Shown here: positions 5,483 through 62,804 of the stretch, piece by piece
Position numbering within the stretch: the stretch's first letter is position 1
How the letters are laid out: every line of letters starts with the position of its first letter
Notes under the pieces: model-generated
What the model saw: the letters and a program-made list of their open reading frames with translations, nothing else
What the model was told of the DNA's origin: nothing
Database searches by the model: none
Sequence record: PQ850605.1
Source of the DNA: Escherichia phage HansTraber_Bas100
DNA length: 64,000 nt
Strand: one strand, 5' to 3'
Translations under genes and position numbers: made by a program

Positions 5483-6403
5483 ATGACGATACCAATCAAC
5501 ACATTCCCTCTATCTGGACAAACTCCAGTCTTGCCTGCGGTGTATGCTAATGGCTTGGCAATTGTCTCAGAATTCACTTCTGATAAAAACTTGATTGTTC
5601 CACTGAGCCCGCCGCTTGCATCAGGGTATAACTCAGTAGGTCAATTCTTTATGATTGGCAATGATGGCGATTCGACCAGCAAGCCTAATCTGACGTTGTC
5701 TGTGCCTAAGATGAACATCACAGACGTTCAAACTGGCTTGACTGCATCTACAATCACCATTGCTTTTGGAGAAGCAGTGATTATAGGGATGGAGTCTGGA
5801 GGGTCCAAGAATGCTGTCGCCGTTAAGGTAGTAAAATCCAGCGACAACCAATACACTTTACCAGCTGCGACGGCTTCCGTTCTCGGCGGCGTCAAAATAG
5901 GAAGCGGAATAAGCGTCGCAGGTGACGGTACAATTAGCGTCACTCAATACTCATTGCCGATTGCGTCAGCATCTACTTTAGGCGGCGTAAAGGTCGGTAC
6001 AACTCTATCAATTGATGGTTCTGGTATGCTTAATGTAGCGCCAAGCACCGTCCAGAATGCTACTAATAGTGTCAGCAATCCTCCAACTACTCTGGTCAAT
6101 CTGGCGACCTTAAACCTTCCTGCAGGGAAATGGCTTGTAACAGCAAGTCAGTTGACTGTCGCGACAGCAGGAATTCAAGCGAATACCGGAATTACAGTCA
6201 AATTGTCAACAAGCGATTCAGATATTACGGATGATGCATTTACAATGTCAGCTGGCATTCGGGCTGCAGGTCGTTTCGGCGGCAATATTCCAACAAAGAT
6301 AATTACTCTTGCCGCGCCTGGCGATGTATGTCTAAACTATCAGTGCACCGATGCGTTGACATCTACCGTTTACGGACAGATCACCGCAATTAAGCTGAAC
6401 TAA
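5483..6403 (+). CDS. virion fibre-like protein with tail-fibre-type repeats
   Basis: GAGG RBS; Ser/Thr/Gly-rich; repeated ATASVLGGVKIGSGISV / ASASTLGGVKVGTTLSI motifs resembling phage tail fibre repeat. Confidence 0.5.
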   Translation: MTIPINTFPLSGQTPVLPAVYANGLAIVSEFTSDKNLIVPLSPPLASGYNSVGQFFMIGNDGDSTSKPNLTLSVPKMNITDVQTGLTASTITIAFGEAVIIGMESGGSKNAVAVKVVKSSDNQYTLPAATASVLGGVKIGSGISVAGDGTISVTQYSLPIASASTLGGVKVGTTLSIDGSGMLNVAPSTVQNATNSVSNPPTTLVNLATLNLPAGKWLVTASQLTVATAGIQANTGITVKLSTSDSDITDDAFTMSAGIRAAGRFGGNIPTKIITLAAPGDVCLNYQCTDALTSTVYGQITAIKLN

Positions 6404-6413
6404 AGAGGAAGTT

Positions 6414-6551
6414 ATGCAAAAGATTATTCAGTCACGTTATGTTAAAGTGCGAAATATTAATTGCAACTCTTTGCTTTCTTGGAAATGGGCTGTTTATGAC
6501 TCAATGCTGATTGGCGTTTTAGTTGCAGGAGTGCTATTTAATATTCACTGA
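6414..6551 (+). CDS. small hydrophobic protein (45 aa), not in ORF track
   Basis: AGAGGAAG RBS 5 nt before ATG; C-terminal hydrophobic stretch SMLIGVLVAGVLF; translated by hand. Confidence 0.3.
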   Translation: MQKIIQSRYVKVRNINCNSLLSWKWAVYDSMLIGVLVAGVLFNIH

Positions 6552-6580
6552 ATTCATCGGCAAAGGATTGCCGCGAGTTT

Positions 6581-6860
6581 TATACGTATAATGACGTATC
6601 ATACGTATCAAGTAAGTTATTGTTTTCAAAAGAATCTTACGGATGATACGGATGATACGCGTTGCCGCCGTACTATATAGGAATTCAAATAAATTAATTT
6701 AAAATTATATATCTAATTTAATTTTATTTTTTTTATAAACTCTTATATATGAAAAGTATCCGTATCATCCGTATCATCCGTAGCACACCAGTGATAGCGC
6801 GGCTTATACACCGATACGGATAAAAATACGCCTCATTTTATCCGTATCATCCGTATCACA
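6581..6860. repeat. iteron-like inverted repeats flanking an AT-rich core (element R1)
   Basis: CTTACGGATGATACGGATGATACG at about 6636-6659 and its reverse complement at about 6756-6783, further ACGTATCA / GATACGGATA copies, about 80-bp AT-rich core with TATATAGGAATTC. Confidence 0.65.
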
Positions 6861-6967
6861 CTAATAAAGGCGCGGCTATATCGGTTGTTATACATATTCA
6901 AACCATAATTATTGTTTGCCTAAGTTTTTTTCATTAGATATAATACACAATACTTATTTGAGGGTGG

Positions 6968-8389
6968 ATGCGAATGCAAACGGCACGCGAAATTGACAAA
7001 AATGGATTCTTGACGATTATGGGTTGTCCAATTTCGTCATTTGGCATTTTTGATTATTCTGCTGGTCAAGTTGGTCTTGATGGTGATCCGAATCGCATCG
7101 TAAAAGTCTATCGCCCTGAGTCAGCGGTGAAAGACCCCGAAGCGATAGATTCATTCAAAAATATCCCTTTCATCGACAATCACGAAATGCTTTCTGGATT
7201 TGAAGGTGATGAGGATAACACAGCACCCGAAGAGTATGGAGTTGATGGCGTTCTGACTGGCAATGTTTATTATGACAAGCCATGGATGCGCGGCGACCTT
7301 AAAGTGTTCAGCCGTCGTCTGAAGAAGGCCATTGATTCTGGAAAGGTTGACTTGTCTTTGGGCTATGACTGTGAATTCATCATACAGTCTGGAGAGTTTG
7401 ACGGGCAGCCGTATGAAGTGGTGCAGACAACTCTTCGCGGCAACCACATTGCTCTCGTGGACGTTGGTCGAGTACCAGGTGCACGGGTGCTGGATGGTCG
7501 TTGCTTTGACCATCTTTGTTTGACGACTGTAACACCATCCAACGAGGATTTAGACATGCCAAAACCGTTAAAAGGTAAAGCGCGTGATAATGCTGTTGAA
7601 CAGCTGAAATCACTGATCCCTGCGCTCGAACAATTTCTGAACGAAGAGAGTACTGAAGCTGCTCATCAGGATGAAGTTGAAGTGAAAGCAGAAGAGAAGG
7701 ACTCAACCGAAAATCGTGAAGAAGTAATGGTTGATCCAGAAGTCAAGGCAGAAGCAGAAGAAACCCCAGAAGGTGAAGAGAAGTTTGAAGTTGAAACTGA
7801 ATCTCACGCTGGCGGCGAACTTCCGCAATTGATCAGCCAAATCGAAGCACTTATTGCAAAACTGAAAGGTGGCGCGGTAGGTGATGAAGAAGAAGTTGAA
7901 GCCGAAGTCAAAGACGAAGAAGAAGTTGAAGTCAAGGCTGAAGATGTATCACCTTGCGACAAAGCTGAAGATGTGGTTAGCGGCCTGCAAAACAGCAACG
8001 TAAAGGGGGCTTCGGTCGAAAAAGATGACAAACCGACAAAAGCGGCGAAAGCGTCGCCAGGTCCAGCAAAAGGGGAACACTCAATGGCATCTGATTCAGC
8101 AGTTGCTGCTTTCTACGCTGATTCTGCTCGTAAGAATAGCCTCTACCAGCGCCTGTCTAAAGTTGTTGGTGCCTTTGATCATGCAACTATGGACTCCAAG
8201 TCCGTAGCGAAATATGGCGCTAAAAAGTTAGGCTTGAAGTGCGTTGATGGGGCTGAGTTTGACGTGGTGGATAATTATCTGCGCGGCGTTGAGCACGGTC
8301 AAAAACAGCGTGTAGTCGCAAAACAAAAGGCCGCTGCGGATTCTGCAGCAACTGACGAAGCATTTGAAGCTTGGTTGAAAGGGGAATAA
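6968..8389 (+). CDS. scaffold/prohead-like protein with acidic E/V/K-rich C-terminal half
   Basis: position between head-fibre gene and capsid gene; low-complexity acidic repeats (EEEVEAEVKDEEEVEVKAED); start may be ATG 6974. Confidence 0.5.
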   Translation: MRMQTAREIDKNGFLTIMGCPISSFGIFDYSAGQVGLDGDPNRIVKVYRPESAVKDPEAIDSFKNIPFIDNHEMLSGFEGDEDNTAPEEYGVDGVLTGNVYYDKPWMRGDLKVFSRRLKKAIDSGKVDLSLGYDCEFIIQSGEFDGQPYEVVQTTLRGNHIALVDVGRVPGARVLDGRCFDHLCLTTVTPSNEDLDMPKPLKGKARDNAVEQLKSLIPALEQFLNEESTEAAHQDEVEVKAEEKDSTENREEVMVDPEVKAEAEETPEGEEKFEVETESHAGGELPQLISQIEALIAKLKGGAVGDEEEVEAEVKDEEEVEVKAEDVSPCDKAEDVVSGLQNSNVKGASVEKDDKPTKAAKASPGPAKGEHSMASDSAVAAFYADSARKNSLYQRLSKVVGAFDHATMDSKSVAKYGAKKLGLKCVDGAEFDVVDNYLRGVEHGQKQRVVAKQKAAADSAATDEAFEAWLKGE

Positions 8390-46272: not shown

Positions 46273-47355
46273 ATGGCTAGTTTAAGAGAAGAAGCAAAAA
46301 TAATCGAAGAGTTTTTAACAGAACTCCAAAGAGGCATTCCAGAAGATGAGCGCGTCATGACGGTGTTTGCGCCTGAAGCAACGGTGCAGACTGACGAGCG
46401 CGGCAAGAAGATTAACAGCAGCTTCTGGCCTAAGCCTTGGAAGTTGGGCAAGCCGCTCATGCAGCACCAAAACGGCTATGCCTGCATCAGTTCAATGCGT
46501 AAGTCTCCCAACCCGAAGACGGGTGAGATGCGATACTGGCGTACAGAGTCAGCCTTTGGTCACGGTATGGCGATGATGGTCGACGACATCGGTCACGGTA
46601 AAGGGTCCAAAGGCGATTTAGATTTGGAATTCTTTTTCGAGCGACTGAAGCCGACTGTCATTGTCGAGACGTCACCGAACAACCACCAGCTGTGGTACTT
46701 CTTTAAAGAACCAATTGACCATCTTATTCAGTTCAAAGCATTCCTTGGGTCTTTCGTAAACATGGTACTCAAGAAGGGCGGCGACAACACGATTAAAGAC
46801 GTAACGCGCGTGGGCCGTGTTCCTGGGTGCATCAACAACAAGCGCGTGACTCACGACGGCCCCTATAAATATGTCGATGAGAACGGCGACCCGTTCCGCT
46901 GCCGACTTGTCCATGCAGATTACTCCTTGCGCTACACCATCGAAGACATTTGTCAGGCATTCGGCTTTCACGTTGTAATGCCGCAAAAGCGTGAGATTCA
47001 AATTGACGTCGATGAATACAAATACGATGCTGTTTGGTATAAGATAGCCCAGCAGATTCTAGCGCGCAACAAGATGGGTGAAGGGTCTGATGGCGACGTT
47101 ATCGAGAATATGTCAGGTAAGTGTCGCATAATCTGTCCTTGGGGTGAAGAGCACACCAACGGCGACCCGTATGGCGCTTACTTTCGCGGCCCTATTCCTG
47201 GTGCAGAACATGAATTTGTGTTCGGTTGCGCCCACGACTGTCACCGGAAAGGGGAAGGCAAGAAAGGTTGGACCGCTTTTGTTGAAGCAATCGTCATGCC
47301 TTATATTGAGAATCAACTTGACATGATAAATCGTCGTGCAGGTGGCATAAAATAG
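46273..47355 (+). CDS. primase-like replication protein with C-terminal Cys/His zinc-binding motif
   Basis: 360-aa first gene of rightward operon; MVDDIGHG acidic motif; CPWGEEH ... CAHDCH cluster. Confidence 0.4.
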   Translation: MASLREEAKIIEEFLTELQRGIPEDERVMTVFAPEATVQTDERGKKINSSFWPKPWKLGKPLMQHQNGYACISSMRKSPNPKTGEMRYWRTESAFGHGMAMMVDDIGHGKGSKGDLDLEFFFERLKPTVIVETSPNNHQLWYFFKEPIDHLIQFKAFLGSFVNMVLKKGGDNTIKDVTRVGRVPGCINNKRVTHDGPYKYVDENGDPFRCRLVHADYSLRYTIEDICQAFGFHVVMPQKREIQIDVDEYKYDAVWYKIAQQILARNKMGEGSDGDVIENMSGKCRIICPWGEEHTNGDPYGAYFRGPIPGAEHEFVFGCAHDCHRKGEGKKGWTAFVEAIVMPYIENQLDMINRRAGGIK

Positions 47356-48665: not shown

Positions 48666-50336
48666 ATGTCAATTAATAACGACAATCTTCCAGAGGATAC
48701 AGGTGATGAATTTGGTGCAATCTTTGACGAAATTCAAGATGCAGGCGTTTCGGAAGAAATGCAGGCAGCAGAGCAGCAAGGCACCAGAGCTAAAATCAGC
48801 CTTCAACATAAAGCCGTTGAAAAAGATTCAGAGCGCATGGAATGCTACGGTGAAGAAGACTTGGTTGAAAGAGCACGCTTGCTCGCCTCACTTCAGGTAA
48901 TCAAGTTCCCTCACTACAAGCCGACCAAAGATGACTTCGTTCTACAGGCAGACCGGACGAGTGACATGAACCGTTATGCGGTTTTCGACGCGTTGTTTGA
49001 TAAGGGAAGTGGCGTTGTTCCATTCCCTCACAAAGATACCTTTCGTGGGCGCTTAGTCGACCATCGCGGCGAAACATTCACCGACCGTACTTTGGAAGTC
49101 ACAGAGATAGTTGCCGCTGTCGACGCAGCAGGATTGTCCAACCCAAACTCACGTCAGGTCGCTCAATCCTATAAGGAATGGGCCATGCGTTATCAGCGCG
49201 ACGACCTGATGGACTTCTTCTACAAGAAGCTGCCTGAATGGGACGGTACTGCGCGCATCGAGAAATACCTTATCGAGCTATTCCGACCGTTCGATACAGA
49301 GTTAAACCGACAAATCGGTGTGTATTTTTGGCTATCGCTCTACAACCGCCTGACCAACCCTGGCTGTCAAGCGCCAATCTCCATTGCGCTCATCGGCGGC
49401 CAGAACGCAGGGAAGAGTTATTTTAGCAAGCTGCTTTGCGAAGCTATTATGAACGACCGCCACGCAACACCGATTCCGTTGAACTTAGCCGCGCAGAACT
49501 TCAACCCGTTCTTGCGAGCTATTACGGGTCGCTCAATTATCGCGAACGTCGGCGAGATGACAGGCTTTAAAAAGGCCGACATCGAAAACATGAAAGCATT
49601 CCTGACTAAGACGGAAGATGACCTGGACTTCAAATTTGAAGATACGCAGGTTAAACCACGCCAGTGGATTGCTATCATGGACGGCAACGAATACGCAGGC
49701 ATGCAGCGTGATGACACGGGCAACCGTCGTGTGTATCCTATCTTTGTTGGCCAACTCGCTGACAAGGACGGGCAACCGAACTGGTCGAAAGACTTCCAAG
49801 CTGACCTTTCCACTTTGAAAGAAGATGTTTGGCAATTGATGGCTGAGTGCGCTGCTTGGATGGAGAAGCACGGCGAAGCAGGCTACAACGCGTTTGTTGG
49901 TGAAACATCTCGCATGCTTACTGAGTTCAGTAAAAACGAAATGGAACGTGCGCGCGGCGTTATCCGTGATGAGATGGTTGACAATGACCTTGTTGAAGTC
50001 GTCATCACCGCGCCTTATGACCGACATCACAGCGGACGCTGGCACATCACCAGTGGTGCTATTGCTATGGGATTCAGAGCGAAGTGTGGCAAGTCGCCTT
50101 TCTCTCGTACCCTTGCGCCGCACATGTCGAAGCTTGGTTTTGAGCCTGCAACCTATCGCAACCAGCGCGGTTACTTTACGCCGCTGATTAAGAATGAAGC
50201 AGGGGAATACATTTCTGACTTGATGACCATCTTAGCGTATCTTATCCGTGATGAGTCTGACCCTGAAGATATTGAATTCTTGAAGAAGGTTATCGAGCGT
50301 AAACGTTCTTTGGGAAGAGATAAGGATGAATTCTGA
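48666..50336 (+). CDS. SF3-type helicase / primase C-terminal domain protein
   Basis: Walker A IGGQNAGKSYF; 556 aa; follows primase-like gene. Confidence 0.6.
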   Translation: MSINNDNLPEDTGDEFGAIFDEIQDAGVSEEMQAAEQQGTRAKISLQHKAVEKDSERMECYGEEDLVERARLLASLQVIKFPHYKPTKDDFVLQADRTSDMNRYAVFDALFDKGSGVVPFPHKDTFRGRLVDHRGETFTDRTLEVTEIVAAVDAAGLSNPNSRQVAQSYKEWAMRYQRDDLMDFFYKKLPEWDGTARIEKYLIELFRPFDTELNRQIGVYFWLSLYNRLTNPGCQAPISIALIGGQNAGKSYFSKLLCEAIMNDRHATPIPLNLAAQNFNPFLRAITGRSIIANVGEMTGFKKADIENMKAFLTKTEDDLDFKFEDTQVKPRQWIAIMDGNEYAGMQRDDTGNRRVYPIFVGQLADKDGQPNWSKDFQADLSTLKEDVWQLMAECAAWMEKHGEAGYNAFVGETSRMLTEFSKNEMERARGVIRDEMVDNDLVEVVITAPYDRHHSGRWHITSGAIAMGFRAKCGKSPFSRTLAPHMSKLGFEPATYRNQRGYFTPLIKNEAGEYISDLMTILAYLIRDESDPEDIEFLKKVIERKRSLGRDKDEF

Positions 50337-58021: not shown

Positions 58022-58554
58022 TGGGTAACGATGCAGGATGGGGCAAGCCGCGATACTCAAAACTTGCCCACTACTTTGACGACGGCGAGCAAATCAGCTT
58101 GTGCGGTAAATTCAGCAAAGGCAATACAGAGTTGACCGATGCTCAAGAAATGGAATCAAGTTTGACAATTGGTGATTGCTCTAAGTGCAGAAAGGCATTA
58201 TATGAGTTATTAACTCTAAGGGGATTGAAAGCGGCAAAATCAAGGGATGAATGGGTCATTAACGTCTGTGAAGGGAATCCAGAATTAATGGATGAATTGC
58301 TGAAAACAGATGCCGTAAATGCAATTTTCAAAAGGCATTATAAAACTTGTATGCGTTACAAGATGAATGATGATATTATTTTTATGGTATTATCTTATTC
58401 AAGGAGCACAATGGACGTCAAAAAGCTTCGACAATATCGCCACAAGGTCATGTGTGAATTGCGCCGTTTAGGAGTTATTGTGGATAATAATGTCATTAAA
58501 ACGGAATTGAAGAAGCGTGATAAAAGGAATGGTGACTGGAAGGTCAGCGGATAA
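58021..58554 (+). CDS. hypothetical Cys-containing protein (177 aa)
   Basis: ATG 58021 with AGGAGG RBS; last gene of rightward block. Confidence 0.5.
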   Translation: MGNDAGWGKPRYSKLAHYFDDGEQISLCGKFSKGNTELTDAQEMESSLTIGDCSKCRKALYELLTLRGLKAAKSRDEWVINVCEGNPELMDELLKTDAVNAIFKRHYKTCMRYKMNDDIIFMVLSYSRSTMDVKKLRQYRHKVMCELRRLGVIVDNNVIKTELKKRDKRNGDWKVSG

Positions 58555-58842
58555 ATAAACACTGTTTACGTGTTTTGAAGAATGGAATGTGTGCAATTGG
58601 TCGCTTTATGCGGCCTTTTGTCGTTTGGGTCGTGTTTTGCGATGGAATGATTATGAGGTTGTGTTTTATTTATTGATTGTGCGGAAATATTTAGAAATAT
58701 ATATAAACAGGATTGTTAATATTTTAATAGTGTATGGCTATTGGTCCGTGGTGTTTGTTAGATTATATCTATGGATTGAAATTTTAGTGTCGTGAAACGT
58801 GGTTTTGAACACATTTGATACGCCTAAAATACGGTTAAAAAT

Positions 58843-59175
58843 TAAGCGTATCATGGCTGCAGGCCGCGCCGTTGCTGGATTCCTATTTTCAAAAGTGGTA
58901 CACCCTTACGTCATGATACGTCATGGTTTTCTATCCGTAAGAGTGTACAGCCCTTGCCGCGCCTGGCTTGTACATTAATCTTACGGATGATACGGATAAA
59001 ACTGAGCATCGTTATATATAGAATTCGAAAAATTAATTAACTCCATTTTAAAAACATTTATATTAATTTTTTTCATATCCTCATACTTATGTTAATTTAT
59101 ATATTTAACGTATCATCCGTAAGATATAAGTAAAAACAAAGACTTGCGGCAATACGGATGATACGTCATGATACG
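58843..59175. repeat. iteron-like inverted repeats flanking an AT-rich core (element R2, homologous to R1)
   Basis: ATCTTACGGATGATACGGAT (about 58978-58997) and reverse-complement ACGTATCATCCGTAAGAT (about 59108-59125), outer copies, core with TATATATAGAATTC. Confidence 0.65.
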
Positions 59176-59403
59176 CTTCAACCAGCCAGCAGCGGCTAAG
59201 TCATTGATTTGCATAACAAGCGGCGAAAGGGATGGATTTCTTTTATACGTATCAAACAGTACACCACGCACCACGGTCCGCTATTCATTCAGCACTATGA
59301 TTTATGTACTTTTACAGCCAATCTGAACATCAATCTGCACTTGAATATAATGTTCATTCATTGTATAATTCACACTATTAATTTGCACTATGGGATTTGC
59401 ACT

Positions 59404-59877
59404 ATGAGTCAAGATTATGTAGCAATGCCTGAAGACTTTGAAGACCCGCGATTTGCAGAGCATAATCAGGCATTATTCGATGAGTTCATTGACCTTGTTA
59501 TTCAGGGCCATGACATGCGCGCAGCTTTTGCACTAGTATTTGGCATGGAGGTTGCGACCGATAACTACACTGGCCAGCGAATCCTCTGCACGCAACGCAA
59601 TCCGTACTACAAGATGCGCTACAAAAAGCGTATGGAAGAGATGCCATTGAAGGAATTGTGGAGCGTAAAGAGTTCCATCCACAATTTAGTGAAGCTTGTG
59701 CGTGATCCAGAAGTCGCGGCGTCAGCCAAGCTTAATGCCATTCGTGAACTGAATATCATCTACGGCATCACGATGATTGATGAAAATGGCAATAGTAAAA
59801 TGGGCCGTTCCATGGACGATTTCTACAAGGATTTTGGAGAGGCAGCCAAAGAGGGTGAGCAATTCTCCCGCCACTAG
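59404..59877 (+). CDS. terminase small subunit-like DNA-binding protein (tentative)
   Basis: FDEFIDLVIQGHDMRAAFALVFG resembles HTH region of small terminases; weak RBS; ATG overlaps a copy of the 11-mer. Confidence 0.4.
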   Translation: MSQDYVAMPEDFEDPRFAEHNQALFDEFIDLVIQGHDMRAAFALVFGMEVATDNYTGQRILCTQRNPYYKMRYKKRMEEMPLKELWSVKSSIHNLVKLVRDPEVAASAKLNAIRELNIIYGITMIDENGNSKMGRSMDDFYKDFGEAAKEGEQFSRH

Positions 59878-59894
59878 CCAATTTGCACTATAAA

Positions 59895-59932
59895 ATGGCC
59901 CTAGAACACATTTTCTCCACTTCTAGGGCCAT
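59895..59932 (+). promoter_or_regulatory. perfect 12-bp-stem hairpin after terS-like gene
   Basis: ATGGCCCTAGAA - 14-nt loop - TTCTAGGGCCAT; no U-tract. Confidence 0.45.
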
Positions 59933-60305
59933 CGGTAATACGACGGGGAAGGTTACAACCATAAACGCGTTAGAAAGTGTATTATTATAAGTCATCTTTT
60001 AGTCACTTTACGTAACAATTTACGACCTTCCGCCGTCCAGTCGAACGACTCCACCAGCAGATTTGCACTATAACCTAAGACGATGCGTCCCTTCTCGTTA
60101 TCGACCCGCCAACAAGTCTCGAATAGCATTCGATTTGCACTATTAACTATCGCCGCGACGCGCGTTGGGTAAGCGCAATTTGCACTATGGTCATAAAGGG
60201 ATAAGGTGCGACCGCTTCCGATGGACAACGTAGCGATAAGAATAAGCGTATTCATAAGCCACCAATTTGCACTATGAAAAGCGACCCCGAAGGGCCGCCA
60301 TTCGA

Positions 60306-60932
60306 TTAGATAATCTGGAATGTGTAGGACTTGTTGCCGAACTCGAAGTTCAAGCGTCCAGCTTCCTTAAGCTTCATGCGGAAGCGAATGTGCTTGCTAT
60401 CCGGTAATCCCAGCGCGGCGAACGCTACGCGGACCGATTTGAACTCGCCTACACCCTCGACCATGACACCGTTACGGGTGAGACGCTTTTGCGCCACTTC
60501 CTTATTATCCCAGCTTTTTGCAATACCTTCGCTATTCGAACGGCGATGGGAAGGAGTTCCATTTTGCACTACGCAATTTGCACTATCGTTTAAACCGCTC
60601 TTAACGAAGGCTTCATACTCTTCGTCGGTCATCGCGTCGAGTTCTTCCTGGGTCGGCTCGGCCTTTTTAACGACCGCACGCGCCTTATGCGTTTTTACAT
60701 CGCTGGGCACTTCCTCGCGCGACTTCGCGTCTGGGATGGGCGACTCGTTGGACGGCTCATCGAGCGCGTTTAAGGACTCGATTAACGCTATTACGCGAGT
60801 CTCGGCGGTCCGGCGGTCCGCAAATTTTTTGATCGGCTTCGAACCGGAATTTGCATTGTAAAATGCAACGAGGTCGGCGGTCTTAGTTGCGATAACGTCG
60901 CCGCTAGTCGAGAAACGATTTAAGCTAACCAT
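60306..60932 (-). CDS. hypothetical protein (208 aa)
   Basis: AGGAG RBS; coding region contains tandem copies of the 11-mer (reverse strand) encoding SANCVVQN. Confidence 0.55.
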   Translation of the reverse strand: MVSLNRFSTSGDVIATKTADLVAFYNANSGSKPIKKFADRRTAETRVIALIESLNALDEPSNESPIPDAKSREEVPSDVKTHKARAVVKKAEPTQEELDAMTDEEYEAFVKSGLNDSANCVVQNGTPSHRRSNSEGIAKSWDNKEVAQKRLTRNGVMVEGVGEFKSVRVAFAALGLPDSKHIRFRMKLKEAGRLNFEFGNKSYTFQII

Positions 60933-61012
60933 AATGAACTCCTATTTGTTAGGGCGCTAGGCGCGAAAGAATTTTATTAAAGCGCCGCGCACGACGCTCT
61001 AAAAATCCTCTC

Positions 61013-61297
61013 TTACGCTTCGACGAGGGAGAAGGTCTCAAATTCTTCTTCGCCCATAACGAGTAAGATGTTACCGATTTCGACCGCTTCGAAGAAGTAT
61101 CCGTTAACGTTTACTTCGAAGGCTTCGCGGTCCGATTCCGGTAACGCCGCGTAAAGTTTAAAAGCCTCGGCGACCGTTACCCCACCCGCCTCGATAGTTT
61201 GGTCTACGTTCGCGGCGTAGACTTCGGATAAAATTTGTTTTACGCCGTAGTTCTCGACGATAGCGTTACGAATAGAAGAAACGTTAAGAATAGCCAT
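61013..61297 (-). CDS. small acidic protein, paralog A (94 aa)
   Basis: AGGAG RBS 6 nt upstream; promoter and leader homologous to those of paralog C in inverted orientation. Confidence 0.55.
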   Translation of the reverse strand: MAILNVSSIRNAIVENYGVKQILSEVYAANVDQTIEAGGVTVAEAFKLYAALPESDREAFEVNVNGYFFEAVEIGNILLVMGEEEFETFSLVEA

Positions 61298-61321
61298 TTT
61301 AAACTCCTAGTTGGGAGAGGC

Positions 61322-61342
61322 GTTAACGACCTATTCGTTAAC
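61322..61342 (-). promoter_or_regulatory. 5' leader hairpin of paralog A
   Basis: GTTAACGA-loop-TCGTTAAC; same position as hairpin in paralog C leader with two compensatory base-pair changes. Confidence 0.5.
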
Positions 61343-61365
61343 TCATCCCGTCCCGATATGAGTAC

Positions 61366-61393
61366 ATTATAATATAGTGTAGAAAAAAGTAAA
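61366..61393 (-). promoter_or_regulatory. promoter of paralog A (TTTACT-16 bp-TATAAT)
   Basis: hexamers on - strand; spacer contains CTACACT. Confidence 0.45.
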
Positions 61394-61437
61394 GCACTTT
61401 TTCGATAAAAATGAGATAAATTATTTTATCTTTTTTC

Positions 61438-61465
61438 TTTACTTCTTCGTACACTCGCGTATACT
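61438..61465 (+). promoter_or_regulatory. promoter of paralog B (TTTACT-16 bp-TATACT)
   Basis: conserved spacer TCTTCGTACACT shared with paralog C promoter. Confidence 0.45.
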
Positions 61466-61521
61466 TGTTTATATCGAGACGGGCGATGGCCCTTCCTTCT
61501 ACTAGCATCGGGAGTTTTATT

Positions 61522-61824
61522 ATGACTACTTTAATCTCTTCTATCCTTACTTACGACGAAGACCGTTTAACCGTTCGTTCTCTTATCGCCGCCGTTAACG
61601 CGGAACTAGAATCCACCATCATTAAGGTCCGCGCGGTCGCTTTCGTCGGGCTTTCCTTCGACGATATGAAATACGCCGAACGTAGCGCCATCCGCTTCGC
61701 GAAGACCGACGACGAAGCCGTTACCCTTATCGAGACGGTTACGCCTCACGGCGAAGCGTTAATTATCGTCGAGTATATCGACGTAGAAGGCGATAAAGCT
61801 TATAAACATTTTATCGCAAAATAA
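61522..61824 (+). CDS. small acidic protein, divergent paralog B (100 aa)
   Basis: ATG 61522 with GGGAG RBS; track start 61465 overlaps the -10 and is rejected. Confidence 0.5.
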   Translation: MTTLISSILTYDEDRLTVRSLIAAVNAELESTIIKVRAVAFVGLSFDDMKYAERSAIRFAKTDDEAVTLIETVTPHGEALIIVEYIDVEGDKAYKHFIAK

Positions 61825-61834
61825 CGAAAAGTGC

Positions 61835-61863
61835 TTTACTTCTTCGTACACTAAGACTATAAT
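61835..61863 (+). promoter_or_regulatory. promoter of paralog C (TTTACT-17 bp-TATAAT)
   Basis: hexamers plus conserved spacer TCTTCGTACACT. Confidence 0.5.
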
Positions 61864-61885
61864 GTTTTATATCGAGAGGGGATGA

Positions 61886-61906
61886 GGTAGCGAATAGGTC
61901 GCTACC
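61886..61906 (+). promoter_or_regulatory. 5' leader hairpin of paralog C
   Basis: GGTAGCGA-atagg-TCGCTACC perfect 8-bp stem about 25 nt upstream of ATG. Confidence 0.5.
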
Positions 61907-61930
61907 CGCCCGACCAACTAGGAGATTATT

Positions 61931-62221
61931 ATGATTACTTTAGCCGCTATCCGTTCCGCTCGCGTCGAGACTTCCGAAAACTCTAACGTATTTGGCGAGA
62001 CTTTAGAGAGCGTTTATCTCTCTAACGTCGACGCGACTATCGAGTCTATTTATGAGCCGATCAACTTCCTCGACCTTTACAAGTATCGCGACGAGGACAT
62101 CGTATCGTCCCGCGTAACGATCAACGGCTTCGTTTATACGATTACCGAAATCGGCGGCGAATATATCGCGGTCCCGCAACTCGGCGGCGAAGTAACTTAT
62201 TTTAAAATCGTCTCCTTATAA
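61931..62221 (+). CDS. small acidic protein, paralog C (96 aa)
   Basis: AGGAG RBS; shares IR.A.VE, VY..NVD.TIE and NG(F/Y)..EIG motifs with paralog A. Confidence 0.55.
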   Translation: MITLAAIRSARVETSENSNVFGETLESVYLSNVDATIESIYEPINFLDLYKYRDEDIVSSRVTINGFVYTITEIGGEYIAVPQLGGEVTYFKIVSL

Positions 62222-62241
62222 TACCCTTCCGTTACTAATAG

Positions 62242-62266
62242 GCCGCGCTTAGTCGCGGCTTTTCTT
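62242..62266 (+). terminator. intrinsic terminator after paralog C
   Basis: GCCGCG-cttagt-CGCGGC stem followed by TTTTCTT. Confidence 0.5.
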
Positions 62267-62385
62267 CGTCCCTATCTCGTTGCGCTCCTACGCGAAAACT
62301 CCTTTATCCTTCCCTTCGTCGTCGCATAATCTTCGTCGGTATGCGCCTTAGTTCGCATAACAGGTATTACGTTAAATGGAGAACA

Positions 62386-62459
62386 TCGCGTAAGTCCTTG
62401 TTTTATATAGACACCTATATCGGACCGTTAGGGCGGGTCGCGTAAGTCGTTGTTTTATA
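62386..62459 (+). repeat. two direct copies of a 22-bp repeat, 52-bp period
   Basis: TCGCGTAAGTCCTTGTTTTATA at 62386 and TCGCGTAAGTCGTTGTTTTATA at 62438. Confidence 0.6.
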
Positions 62460-62690
62460 AAGGCGCAAAACTTTCCCTTCGTTCCGAACTAAAACGAGAA
62501 ATATGCGGACCCTTCGCTCGAAAATAGTACGCATGCGAAATTACCGACATCTAGAATAATCCCCATCGATATTATCCTACGCGCAACCATTCGCTTTCGA
62601 ATTGTAACGCTGGAAACTGTAACGGCGATTGATTATTGCGTTCGTGTGGTTTTTAGGGCATGGGTCTTTTGGTGCGTTTTGCTACTTGAT

Positions 62691-62804
62691 GGAATTTGCA
62701 GTACACTAATCAAAATACGACACATTTGGTCCACTAACTTTTCAAAGAAAAAGTCCTAGACAGTACCGTACTATTTTGTATCCACAGGAAATTTGCAGTA
62801 CACT
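62691..62804 (+). repeat. two copies of GGAA(A)TTTGCAGTACACT
   Basis: copies at about 62691 and 62787; shares ATTTGCA and CACT with the 11-mer and GTACACT with island promoter spacers. Confidence 0.55.

Follow-up and report, generated by a model that had tools for sequence, protein, structure and literature searches.

Two related non-coding elements, which we call R1 and R2, are present in Escherichia phage HansTraber_Bas100, within the 64,000 nucleotides of sequence record PQ850605.1 that were analysed here (the window). We consider that R1 and R2 are probably, on balance, Rep-type replication origins of the kind used by Staphylococcus aureus pathogenicity islands (SaPIs) and phage-inducible chromosomal islands (PICIs), with R2 serving also as the start of DNA packaging. 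An initial inspection of the letters alone (the sequence-only reading) had offered three explanations for R1, namely an origin, a miniature mobile element and a regulator-bound late promoter. The origin is the best supported of these, because of the cross-genus conservation of two copies, their matched lineage-specific repeats and a helicase resembling SaPI1 Rep1, but the support is partial. The region around R1 is 94-98% identical to 28 records of Wifcevirus, a group of ~68-kb myoviruses infecting E. coli and Shigella, with HermannAdler/Bas98 the closest. Judged by this similarity the window is a Wifcevirus genome, and it starts at the large-terminase gene, as does the Bas98 record.

The anatomy of R1 is dominated by a perfect 22-nt inverted repeat, the arms of which, TACGGATGATACGGATGATACG (6638-6659) and CGTATCATCCGTATCATCCGTA (6761-6782), are exact reverse complements separated by 101 nt. 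The chance expectation for such a pair in 64 kb is ~1e-6. The arms are built from a short unit, or iteron, that reads GATACGGAT in one direction and ATCCGTATC in the other and recurs at 9-bp spacing, with 2.5 forward units in the inner-left array, 3 reverse units in the inner-right array and ~12 units in the element as a whole. Of the hexamer GATACG/CGTATC, R1 has 9 copies in ~260 bp and R2 has 8, compared to only 19 in the 63 kb outside the two elements (Poisson P(>=9) ~2e-16). The core between the arrays opens with TATATAGGAATTC. Measured over 60, 80 or 100 bp, no other part of the 64 kb is as rich in A+T, and the R2 core comes second. That the two most AT-rich segments are the two cores suggests a potential for unwinding, and so favours an origin. 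The inverted repeats, 9-bp period, extra outer copies and A/T core described in the sequence-only reading are all present where it put them. Its extent for R1, 6581-6860, located the core correctly, but the real span is slightly wider, running from a hairpin at 6558 to the GCGCGGCT motif at 6876.

Further structure is seen in both flanks of R1. The outer-left iterons and the inner-left array together form a long imperfect palindrome (z = -4.1 for the single-strand DNA fold), and a second left-side GCCGC lies just past the inner-left array at 6664-6668. The right flank (single-strand fold z = -3.2) contains a perfect 13-bp palindrome, GATACGGATAAAA (6813-6825) and TTTTATCCGTATC (6836-6848). It also has GCGGC at 6799 and 6872, within a 38-nt direct repeat, and the second of its GCGCGGCT motifs is at 6876. 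Since significant flank palindromes are a property of this phage that some other lineages lack, hairpins are not counted among the defining features.

The second copy, R2, had been anticipated as a homologous element near 58843-59175. It aligns with R1 co-linearly and in the same orientation, and its extent is now set at 58816-59260. Common to the alignment are AATCTTACGGATGATACGGAT, a TATATAG(G)AATTC box, parts of the core, and CGTATCATCCGTA. A terminator-like hairpin lies ahead of each copy and a near-consensus sigma-70-type promoter behind it, and each copy therefore occupies its own transcription-free island.

R1 is present at the same locus in 28/28 Wifcevirus records at 95-99.7% identity, a conservation at least equal to that of the flanking genes. 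Indeed, positions 6600-6967 are almost invariant among Wifcevirus genomes that differ by ~5% in the flanking genes, which indicates selection and thereby favours the origin reading. More distant relatives were located through homologues of the small terminase (TerS), the head protease and the helicase. Every relative examined, comprising Wifcevirus, Pantoea phage Kyle, Myosmarvirus, Pbunavirus and metagenomic lineages, has both copies at the same two loci, one upstream of the head-protease gene and the other upstream of terS, with a large gap at each. Both gaps also retain the architecture, in which repeat arrays and a TATA(T/A)AG box precede an AT-rich core that is followed by the box and the arrays in inverted form. 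At least two iterons per side in opposite orientation are likewise found in the records we label L014, L015, L016, L122, L123, L124 and L125, the last two being bacterial islands described below. This distribution bears on the idea that R1 is a miniature inverted-repeat mobile element, or the remnant of one, inserted in the structural operon. Terminal inverted repeats and the presence of two copies per genome are what such an element would show. However, the loci are orthologous in Kyle, Myosmarvirus, Pbunavirus and the metagenomic relatives while the sequence is lineage-specific, and a search of related phages for presence or absence found the element in all of them, with no target-site duplications, empty sites or additional copies. 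The conserved synteny across records and genera thus excludes a mobile element, for which we see next to no chance.

What varies between lineages is the repeat unit itself. It is GATACGGAT in Wifcevirus, GCGGATA in the L015 phage, CTTGCGGATA in the L016 phage, GGTTATT in Kyle, TTATCGGATAA in m42156, CCCGGTAA in m44878, CGAAAAG / CACTTTTC in Serratia phage MTx and GGTAATTTGG in Pbunavirus. Within each genome the unit is common to both copies, and it differs between lineages. A comparison of 10-mers shared between R2 and R1 in 15 genomes with both copies is accordingly block-diagonal, with 14-42 shared within a lineage and 0-10 between lineages, and two further lineages show the same within-lineage sharing of R1 and R2 sequence. 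That both copies carry the same iteron in each lineage, and so co-evolve, favours a shared origin function. In the second Wifcevirus clade, R1 and R2 have identical left arms, whereas the sequence to the left of the R2 inner arm is non-homologous to the window; an R1-type arm beside a non-homologous flank indicates gene conversion between R1 and R2. Homology between the Wifcevirus clades breaks exactly at the R2 left arm (58979-58983), and leftward to ~58500 the sequence is unrelated in FEC19, ECML-117, Mansfield and Bas98-101. As homology stops at this arm, R2 is a recombination junction.

One motif is the same everywhere. Among 30 elements from 15 genomes, the left flanks contain GCCGC 67 times and GCGGC 3 times, and the right flanks contain GCCGC 0 times and GCGGC 85 times. 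The consensus of this universal polar motif is ~GCGGCAA, directed away from the core on both sides, and it could be a site for the primase or for TerS. Such strict dyad symmetry is more readily reconciled with a bidirectional assembly on both sides than with a packaging signal that acts in one direction.

The candidate initiator is a VapE-like superfamily 3 (SF3) helicase. Its only sequence match in the PDB is 7PDS, the structure of SaPI1 Rep1 with DNA (phmmer E = 4e-11). An AlphaFold model was made with 30 homologues as input (pLDDT, the predicted local distance difference test score, 83.6) and compared with the PDB using Foldseek. The six best matches are all chains of 7PDS (E 7e-16 to 1e-14, TM 0.55-0.61), and ~480 aligned columns against the 451-457 residues of these chains cover essentially the entire Rep1. 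The next PDB matches, the NrS-1 helicase and poxvirus D5/E5, are at 1e-7 or worse. On the basis of this model, the helicase is a predicted full-length structural homologue of SaPI1 Rep1, and since Rep1 is an initiator, this homology argues for the origin reading. Residues 436-510 are modelled as H-E-H-H-E-E, which is a winged-helix topology. This C-terminal block is the least conserved folded part of the protein, with 30% identity in the 30-sequence alignment compared to 65% in the ATPase core. Such low conservation would be expected of a specificity domain, and is circumstantial support for iteron recognition. Hypervariability had been looked for, and the C-terminus still aligns at 31-34% identity with partial MTx and E217 sequences.

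SaPI Rep proteins read short iterons through a C-terminal winged helix, and the SaPI origin lies immediately downstream of rep, with 6-12 iterons, at least two per side in opposite directions, around an AT-rich centre; two Rep hexamers are thought to load, one per side (PMC9371898). The phage elements are alike in having two iteron sets in opposite orientation (6581-6659 and 6758-6858 in R1) around an AT-rich core (6674-6756), with the equivalent in R2, and this SaPI-type layout speaks for the origin reading. The phage also has a helicase of the same family with a winged-helix-like C-terminal domain, and a separate primase gene. In E217, Ab27, MTx, L123, the L016 phage and two bacterial islands, an R2-type copy is found just downstream of the helicase gene, as the SaPI origin typically follows rep, which again favours an origin. 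There are differences too. The phage elements occur as two copies per genome at conserved loci, one of which carries the virion DNA end, and they add the universal outward GCGGC(A) motif and the TATA(T/A)AG boxes. The host genome is a virulent 68-kb myovirus rather than a satellite.

From these observations we infer helicase binding, core melting and origin firing as follows. The 9-bp GATACGGAT units, opposed across the ~85-bp AT core, would be binding sites for the winged-helix C-terminal domain of the VapE helicase. With helicase bound on both flanks, the AT core would melt and two helicase rings would then load, after which the RepB-type primase (46273-47355) would prime outward synthesis. 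The upstream hairpin and downstream promoter would keep both copies clear of read-through transcription, and R2 would double as the terminase cut site that creates the left end of virion DNA.

Several observations weigh against an origin. The only functional datum on this type of element concerns packaging, as virion or read ends fall inside the R2-type core, and R2 adjoins terS in every lineage. At 9 bp, the units are longer than SaPI iterons, which are penta- or hexanucleotides (5-6 bp). In the window, the helicase gene adjoins neither copy: R2 is 8.5 kb downstream of it, with small genes between, and R1 is in the head operon. Nor can adjacency in the bacterial islands separate the helicase from TerS as the binding partner, because the islands keep both genes beside the element. 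Cumulative GC and AT skew over the window shows nothing at R1 and has its maximum at 59.9 kb, where strand usage flips; as cumulative skew tracks gene orientation, it gives no evidence on origins. Finally, a skew analysis of Pbunavirus puts the minima inside the replication-gene region (PMC12390725).

The packaging data come from several phages. The WFC record holds both copies of a 3.78-kb terminal repeat, and its first and last bases correspond to window positions 59045 and 62750, respectively (PMC6563267). Position 1 of Mansfield is also window position 59045, that record having been opened at the boundary of a 3,673-bp direct terminal repeat (DTR) predicted by PhageTerm (PMC6753283). In Kyle (DTR ~3.6 kb) and MTx (PhageTerm DTR 3,566 bp), the left end is in the phage's own R2-type core, 27 nt and 21 nt to the right of the left box, respectively, and the single fixed read end of Ab27 maps to the centre of its R2-type element (PMC4482731). 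As the ends of WFC/Mansfield, Kyle, MTx and Ab27 all fall inside these cores, R2-type elements mark the packaging start in four genera. The sequence-only reading did not consider packaging, but with the left end of the packaged genome inside R2, directly upstream of terS, such a role must be considered.

A terminase-binding element is the main rival to an origin, although we hold it to be unlikely. By this account both copies are packaging (pac-type) recognition elements, in which TerS or an accessory packaging protein binds repeat clusters that flank a cleavage centre. R2 would be the active copy and R1 a second landing pad cut rarely or never, which might, for example, pair with R2 in a synapsis or sense the maturity of a concatemer. 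A synapsis or maturity-sensing role was reportedly proposed for the pac-like sites in T4 gene 16 and gene 19. In P1 pac and in SPP1 pacL-pacC-pacR, clusters of short repeats surround the terminase cut region beside the terminase gene, and R2 is laid out in the same way, with two clusters around the cleavage centre. The ends in four genera (PMC6753283, PMC4482731), the consistent cut 21-27 nt right of the left TATA(T/A)AG box in three DTR lineages, and the position of R2 directly upstream of terS in all lineages, bacterial islands included, agree with this account. R1 lies between the head-fibre/mini-ORF unit and the head-protease gene, 16 kb from terS, and no genome end at R1 was found among Wifcevirus and Pbunavirus record starts or in the literature searched, with Ab27 having a single fixed end (PMC4482731). 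A cut at R1 would give defective genomes in phages with exact DTR ends, and Wifcevirus, Kyle and MTx make exact 3.6-3.8-kb direct terminal repeats, unlike the headful-permuted ends of P1 and SPP1. Packaging is unidirectional, whereas R1 and R2 are strictly dyad-symmetric around a long AT-rich core. The N-terminus of TerS is well conserved across lineages while the iterons are lineage-specific, and the TerS of E217 showed no appreciable DNA binding in vitro (PMC9611059).

The packaging signal could instead be carried by sequences specific to R2. The R2 core has a G/C island at the cut site, AACTCC/ATTTT (the slash marks the cut), which is kept in the 70%-identity relative L012 and is lacking in R1. 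A polar repeat, (A/T)TTTGCACTA(T), follows R2. The pattern TTTGCA[CG]T occurs 12 times in the window, always on the + strand whichever strand the genes use, and every occurrence is between 59382 and 62792. Ten of these are at 59382-60585, within 1.5 kb of the left end, and the other two, at 62695 and 62792, are on either side of the right DTR end, so that only the last is outside the terminal repeat. In L012, L013 and Kyle, the R2-type element is followed by TGCACTA arrays of the same polarity, often close to CCACCAGC; no such array follows it in MTx or E217, and TTTGCA[CG]T does not occur near R1. The polar TTTGCACTA array is a candidate terminase or DNA-entry signal. Judging from this distribution, the AACTCC/ATTTT island and the polar motifs, rather than the shared iterons, probably direct packaging, which would explain why no genome end is reported at R1.

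Some additional repeats were seen around the right end of the DTR. Position 62750 is flanked by two copies of GGAA(A)TTTGCAGTACACT ~96 bp apart (62691-62707 and 62787-62804), and the last bases before the right cut, CCACTAACTTTTCAAAGAAA, resemble the first bases at the MTx left end, GTACACTAACTTTTC (L017 9-23). A direct repeat, CGCGTAAGTC(C/G)TTGTTTTATA(T/A)AG, at 62388-62411 and 62441-62464 within the right portion of the DTR, contains the only intergenic TATA(T/A)AG boxes in the window besides those of R1 and R2.

The boxes are relevant to a further explanation, in which R1 and R2 control transcription of the late head operon and of terS. Adjacent promoters would then be insulated, repressed or activated by a phage DNA-binding protein on the arrays, with the AT core acting as an UP element or bending site. 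Both copies do lie between a terminator-like hairpin and a strong sigma-70-like promoter of a morphogenesis or packaging gene, and TATA-like boxes bound the core. In addition, the left box of the R1-type element of E217 (L021 2270-2300) reads TATATAGCCTGGGG, with CTGGG after the box. The same pentamer, missing from the R2-type copy, forms the core of the phage-specific promoter motif described for phage 14-1 (PMC10914365). However, TATATAG occurs 9 times in the window and is intergenic only at R1, R2 and one DTR site. It is not a box repeated ahead of other operons, for which reason we rejected it as a general late promoter. The ordinary downstream promoters, being near-consensus, should need no activator; strict dyad symmetry and ~330 bp of conserved architecture are more than the control of a promoter in one direction would call for; and to the left of each element are the 3' ends of genes. 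Nor would transcription control account for the genome end in R2 or the link with the helicase gene. We therefore find the late-promoter suggestion weak and transcription control very improbable.

Other known systems share some features with R1 and R2. Phage P4 has two iteron clusters, ori and crr, which are bound by the alpha primase-helicase, are 4.5 kb apart and differ in structure. Like these, R1 and R2 are separated cis elements with the same short repeat in one replicon, the P4 pair being recognised by an SF3-type helicase-primase, but R1 and R2 share their full architecture and are ~16 kb (or 52 kb) apart. In the origins of SV40 (GAGGC pentamers bound by large T) and papillomavirus (E1), inverted arrays of a short motif nucleate an SF3 double hexamer near an AT-rich tract. 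The arrays, the tract and the helicase type are comparable to ours, but those origins are far more compact, use another type of origin-binding domain and have the AT tract to one side. In RSF1010 oriV, a RepB-type primase (RepB') acts on two inverted hairpin signals, ssiA and ssiB; the phage likewise has a RepB-type primase, and the flanks of R1 and R2 form significant palindromes. Classical plasmid and lambda iterons are 17-22-bp direct repeats on one side, with DnaA boxes. R1 and R2 resemble these in having an AT-rich unwinding region beside repeated initiator sites, but their 9-bp units flank that region on both sides in inverted orientation, and the motif follows the phage lineage, differing even between lineages that share hosts. 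A classical theta origin of the plasmid or lambda type was rejected on these grounds and for want of a consensus DnaA box, the nearest look-alike, TTATCCGTA, having two mismatches in the critical CACA. Host DnaA or IHF sites were also rejected as the identity of the repeats, which are lineage- rather than host-specific and fit neither consensus.

The element was also found outside phage genomes. Integrase-bearing bacterial islands of ~10 kb contain a trio of the helicase gene, a ~650-bp element and a gene for an E217-type TerS (hhalign probability 99.1%). The island elements have their own 9-bp iterons in inverted arrays, with the same GCCGC-left / GCGGC-right polarity. From their gene content, these islands look like undescribed PICI-like satellites of BcepF1/Pbunavirus-type myoviruses. 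The positions of all features are collected in Table 1.

Table 1 Features of R1, R2 and associated loci. Positions refer to the window, except for the island cassettes, which are numbered in their own records.
Feature	Position	Strand	Remarks
R1 (whole element)	6558-6885		~330 bp, non-coding, in head-gene operon
Terminator-like hairpin, CGGCAAAGGATTGCCG and T-run	6558-6585	+	Closes head-fibre/mini-ORF transcription unit; first left-side GCCGC at 6570
R1 outer-left iterons, ACGTATAA and ACGTATCA x2	6581-6611		Orientation as inner-right array
R1 inner-left array, TACGGATGA x2 and TACG, 9-bp period	6638-6659		Left arm of 22-nt inverted repeat
R1 AT-rich core, 75/83 A+T	6674-6756		TATATAGG box on left (6674), inverted counterpart CTTATATA on right (6743)
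R1 inner-right array, ATCCGTATC x2 and ATCCGTAGC	6758-6784		Holds right arm of perfect inverted repeat
R1 right flank	6796-6876		Two outward-facing GCGCGGCT motifs, 13-bp palindrome, outer-right iterons (6840-6858)
Sigma-70-like promoter, TTGCCT-17-TATAAT	6916-6944	+	Restarts transcription into head protease/scaffold gene (6968-8389)
RepB-type DNA primase (PF16793)	46273-47355	+	Likely helicase partner
VapE-like SF3 helicase, candidate initiator	48666-50336	+	Pfam VapE-like; variable C-terminal winged-helix-like domain, residues ~436-510
R2 (R1 paralogue)	58816-59260		Same orientation as R1
R2 left iterons and GCCGC	58863, 58956
R2 inner-left array	58982-58999
R2 TATATATAG box	59013
R2 AT core, 82/95 A+T	59013-59107
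Left end of packaged genome, AATTAACTCC/ATTTTAAAAAC	59044/59045		Inside R2 core, 24 nt right of TATATAG box
Direct terminal repeat region, ~3.7 kb	59045-62750		Delimited by WFC record ends
R2 inner-right array	59108-59121
R2 GCGGC	59146, 59192, 59220
R2 outer-right iterons	59153-59175, 59244-59253
terS, 157 aa	59404-59877	+	Homologue of E217 small terminase (PDB 7UXE), E = 9e-33; next open reading frame right of R2
Island cassette L124	6001-8859		Caballeronia sp., JALQDQ010000018
Island cassette L125	6001-8854		Cupriavidus pauculus, PJRP01000009

The neighbours of R1 are the head-fibre gene and a 45-aa open reading frame (ORF) on one side and, on the other, a head maturation protease/scaffold gene of the Pa193_gp24 type (6968-8389), the gene that the sequence-only reading had called scaffold-like. 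The same reading gave a gap of 560 bp between the flanking genes. As the 45-aa ORF (6414-6551, + strand) is conserved in relatives, the non-coding stretch is instead 416 bp (6552-6967). The ORF encodes a membrane mini-protein whose C-terminal part is a hydrophobic helix and which has a conserved W(K/R)WA(V/I)(Y/F)D motif. L014, L015 and L016 have this ORF in the equivalent position, and a looser counterpart is seen in MTx and E217. Judged by this conservation, it is a real, uncharacterised mini-protein gene directly upstream of R1. A 15-nt identity, CTTGCCGCGCCTGGC, which contains the polar GCCGC, is shared by the 3' end of the head-fibre gene (6308-6322) and the left flank of R2 (58953-58967); the former may be a third, outlying copy on the left side of R1, or due to chance. 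Four short 'hypothetical protein' coding sequences (CDSs) annotated across R2 in Bas98 (58663-59302, L006; ~58640-59330 in the window) overlap the repeat arrays and AT core, and similar CDSs cover the element in E217 (58488-59108) and MTx (gp103). All of these are probably annotation artefacts. An Rfam search of the window gave no match at the gathering score, with chance-level matches only in 6400-7000.

It is conceivable that the origin and the packaging start are a single device, although we regard this as quite doubtful. In such a scheme, firing of R2 would make a melted or forked structure in the AT core that terminase cuts, so that the left boundary of the DTR is set by the origin, and the repeat would be duplicated by rightward synthesis from R2 to a polar stop near 62750. 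The helicase-origin-terS cassette would have been captured by PICI-like satellites of Burkholderiaceae, and R1 would be a 'plain' origin lacking the packaging add-ons.

No description of R1/R2-type elements was found in the literature searched, and no origin has been defined there for Pbunavirus, Wifcevirus or Myosmarvirus. Our analysis offers two concrete candidate origins per genome, together with a candidate initiator that has a predicted DNA-reading domain. If a replication origin also set the boundary of a long terminal repeat, this would bear on the way in which long exact terminal repeats are regenerated from concatemers. The packaging start of the family is placed inside one of the two elements, which may reconcile contradictory reports of Pbunavirus ends (PMC12390725, PMC4482731, PMC3008698). 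This is also relevant to the rebooting and engineering of these genomes, in which the ends and cis elements must be preserved. Finally, the bacterial islands that carry the helicase-element-terS cassette suggest that these phages have satellites not described before.

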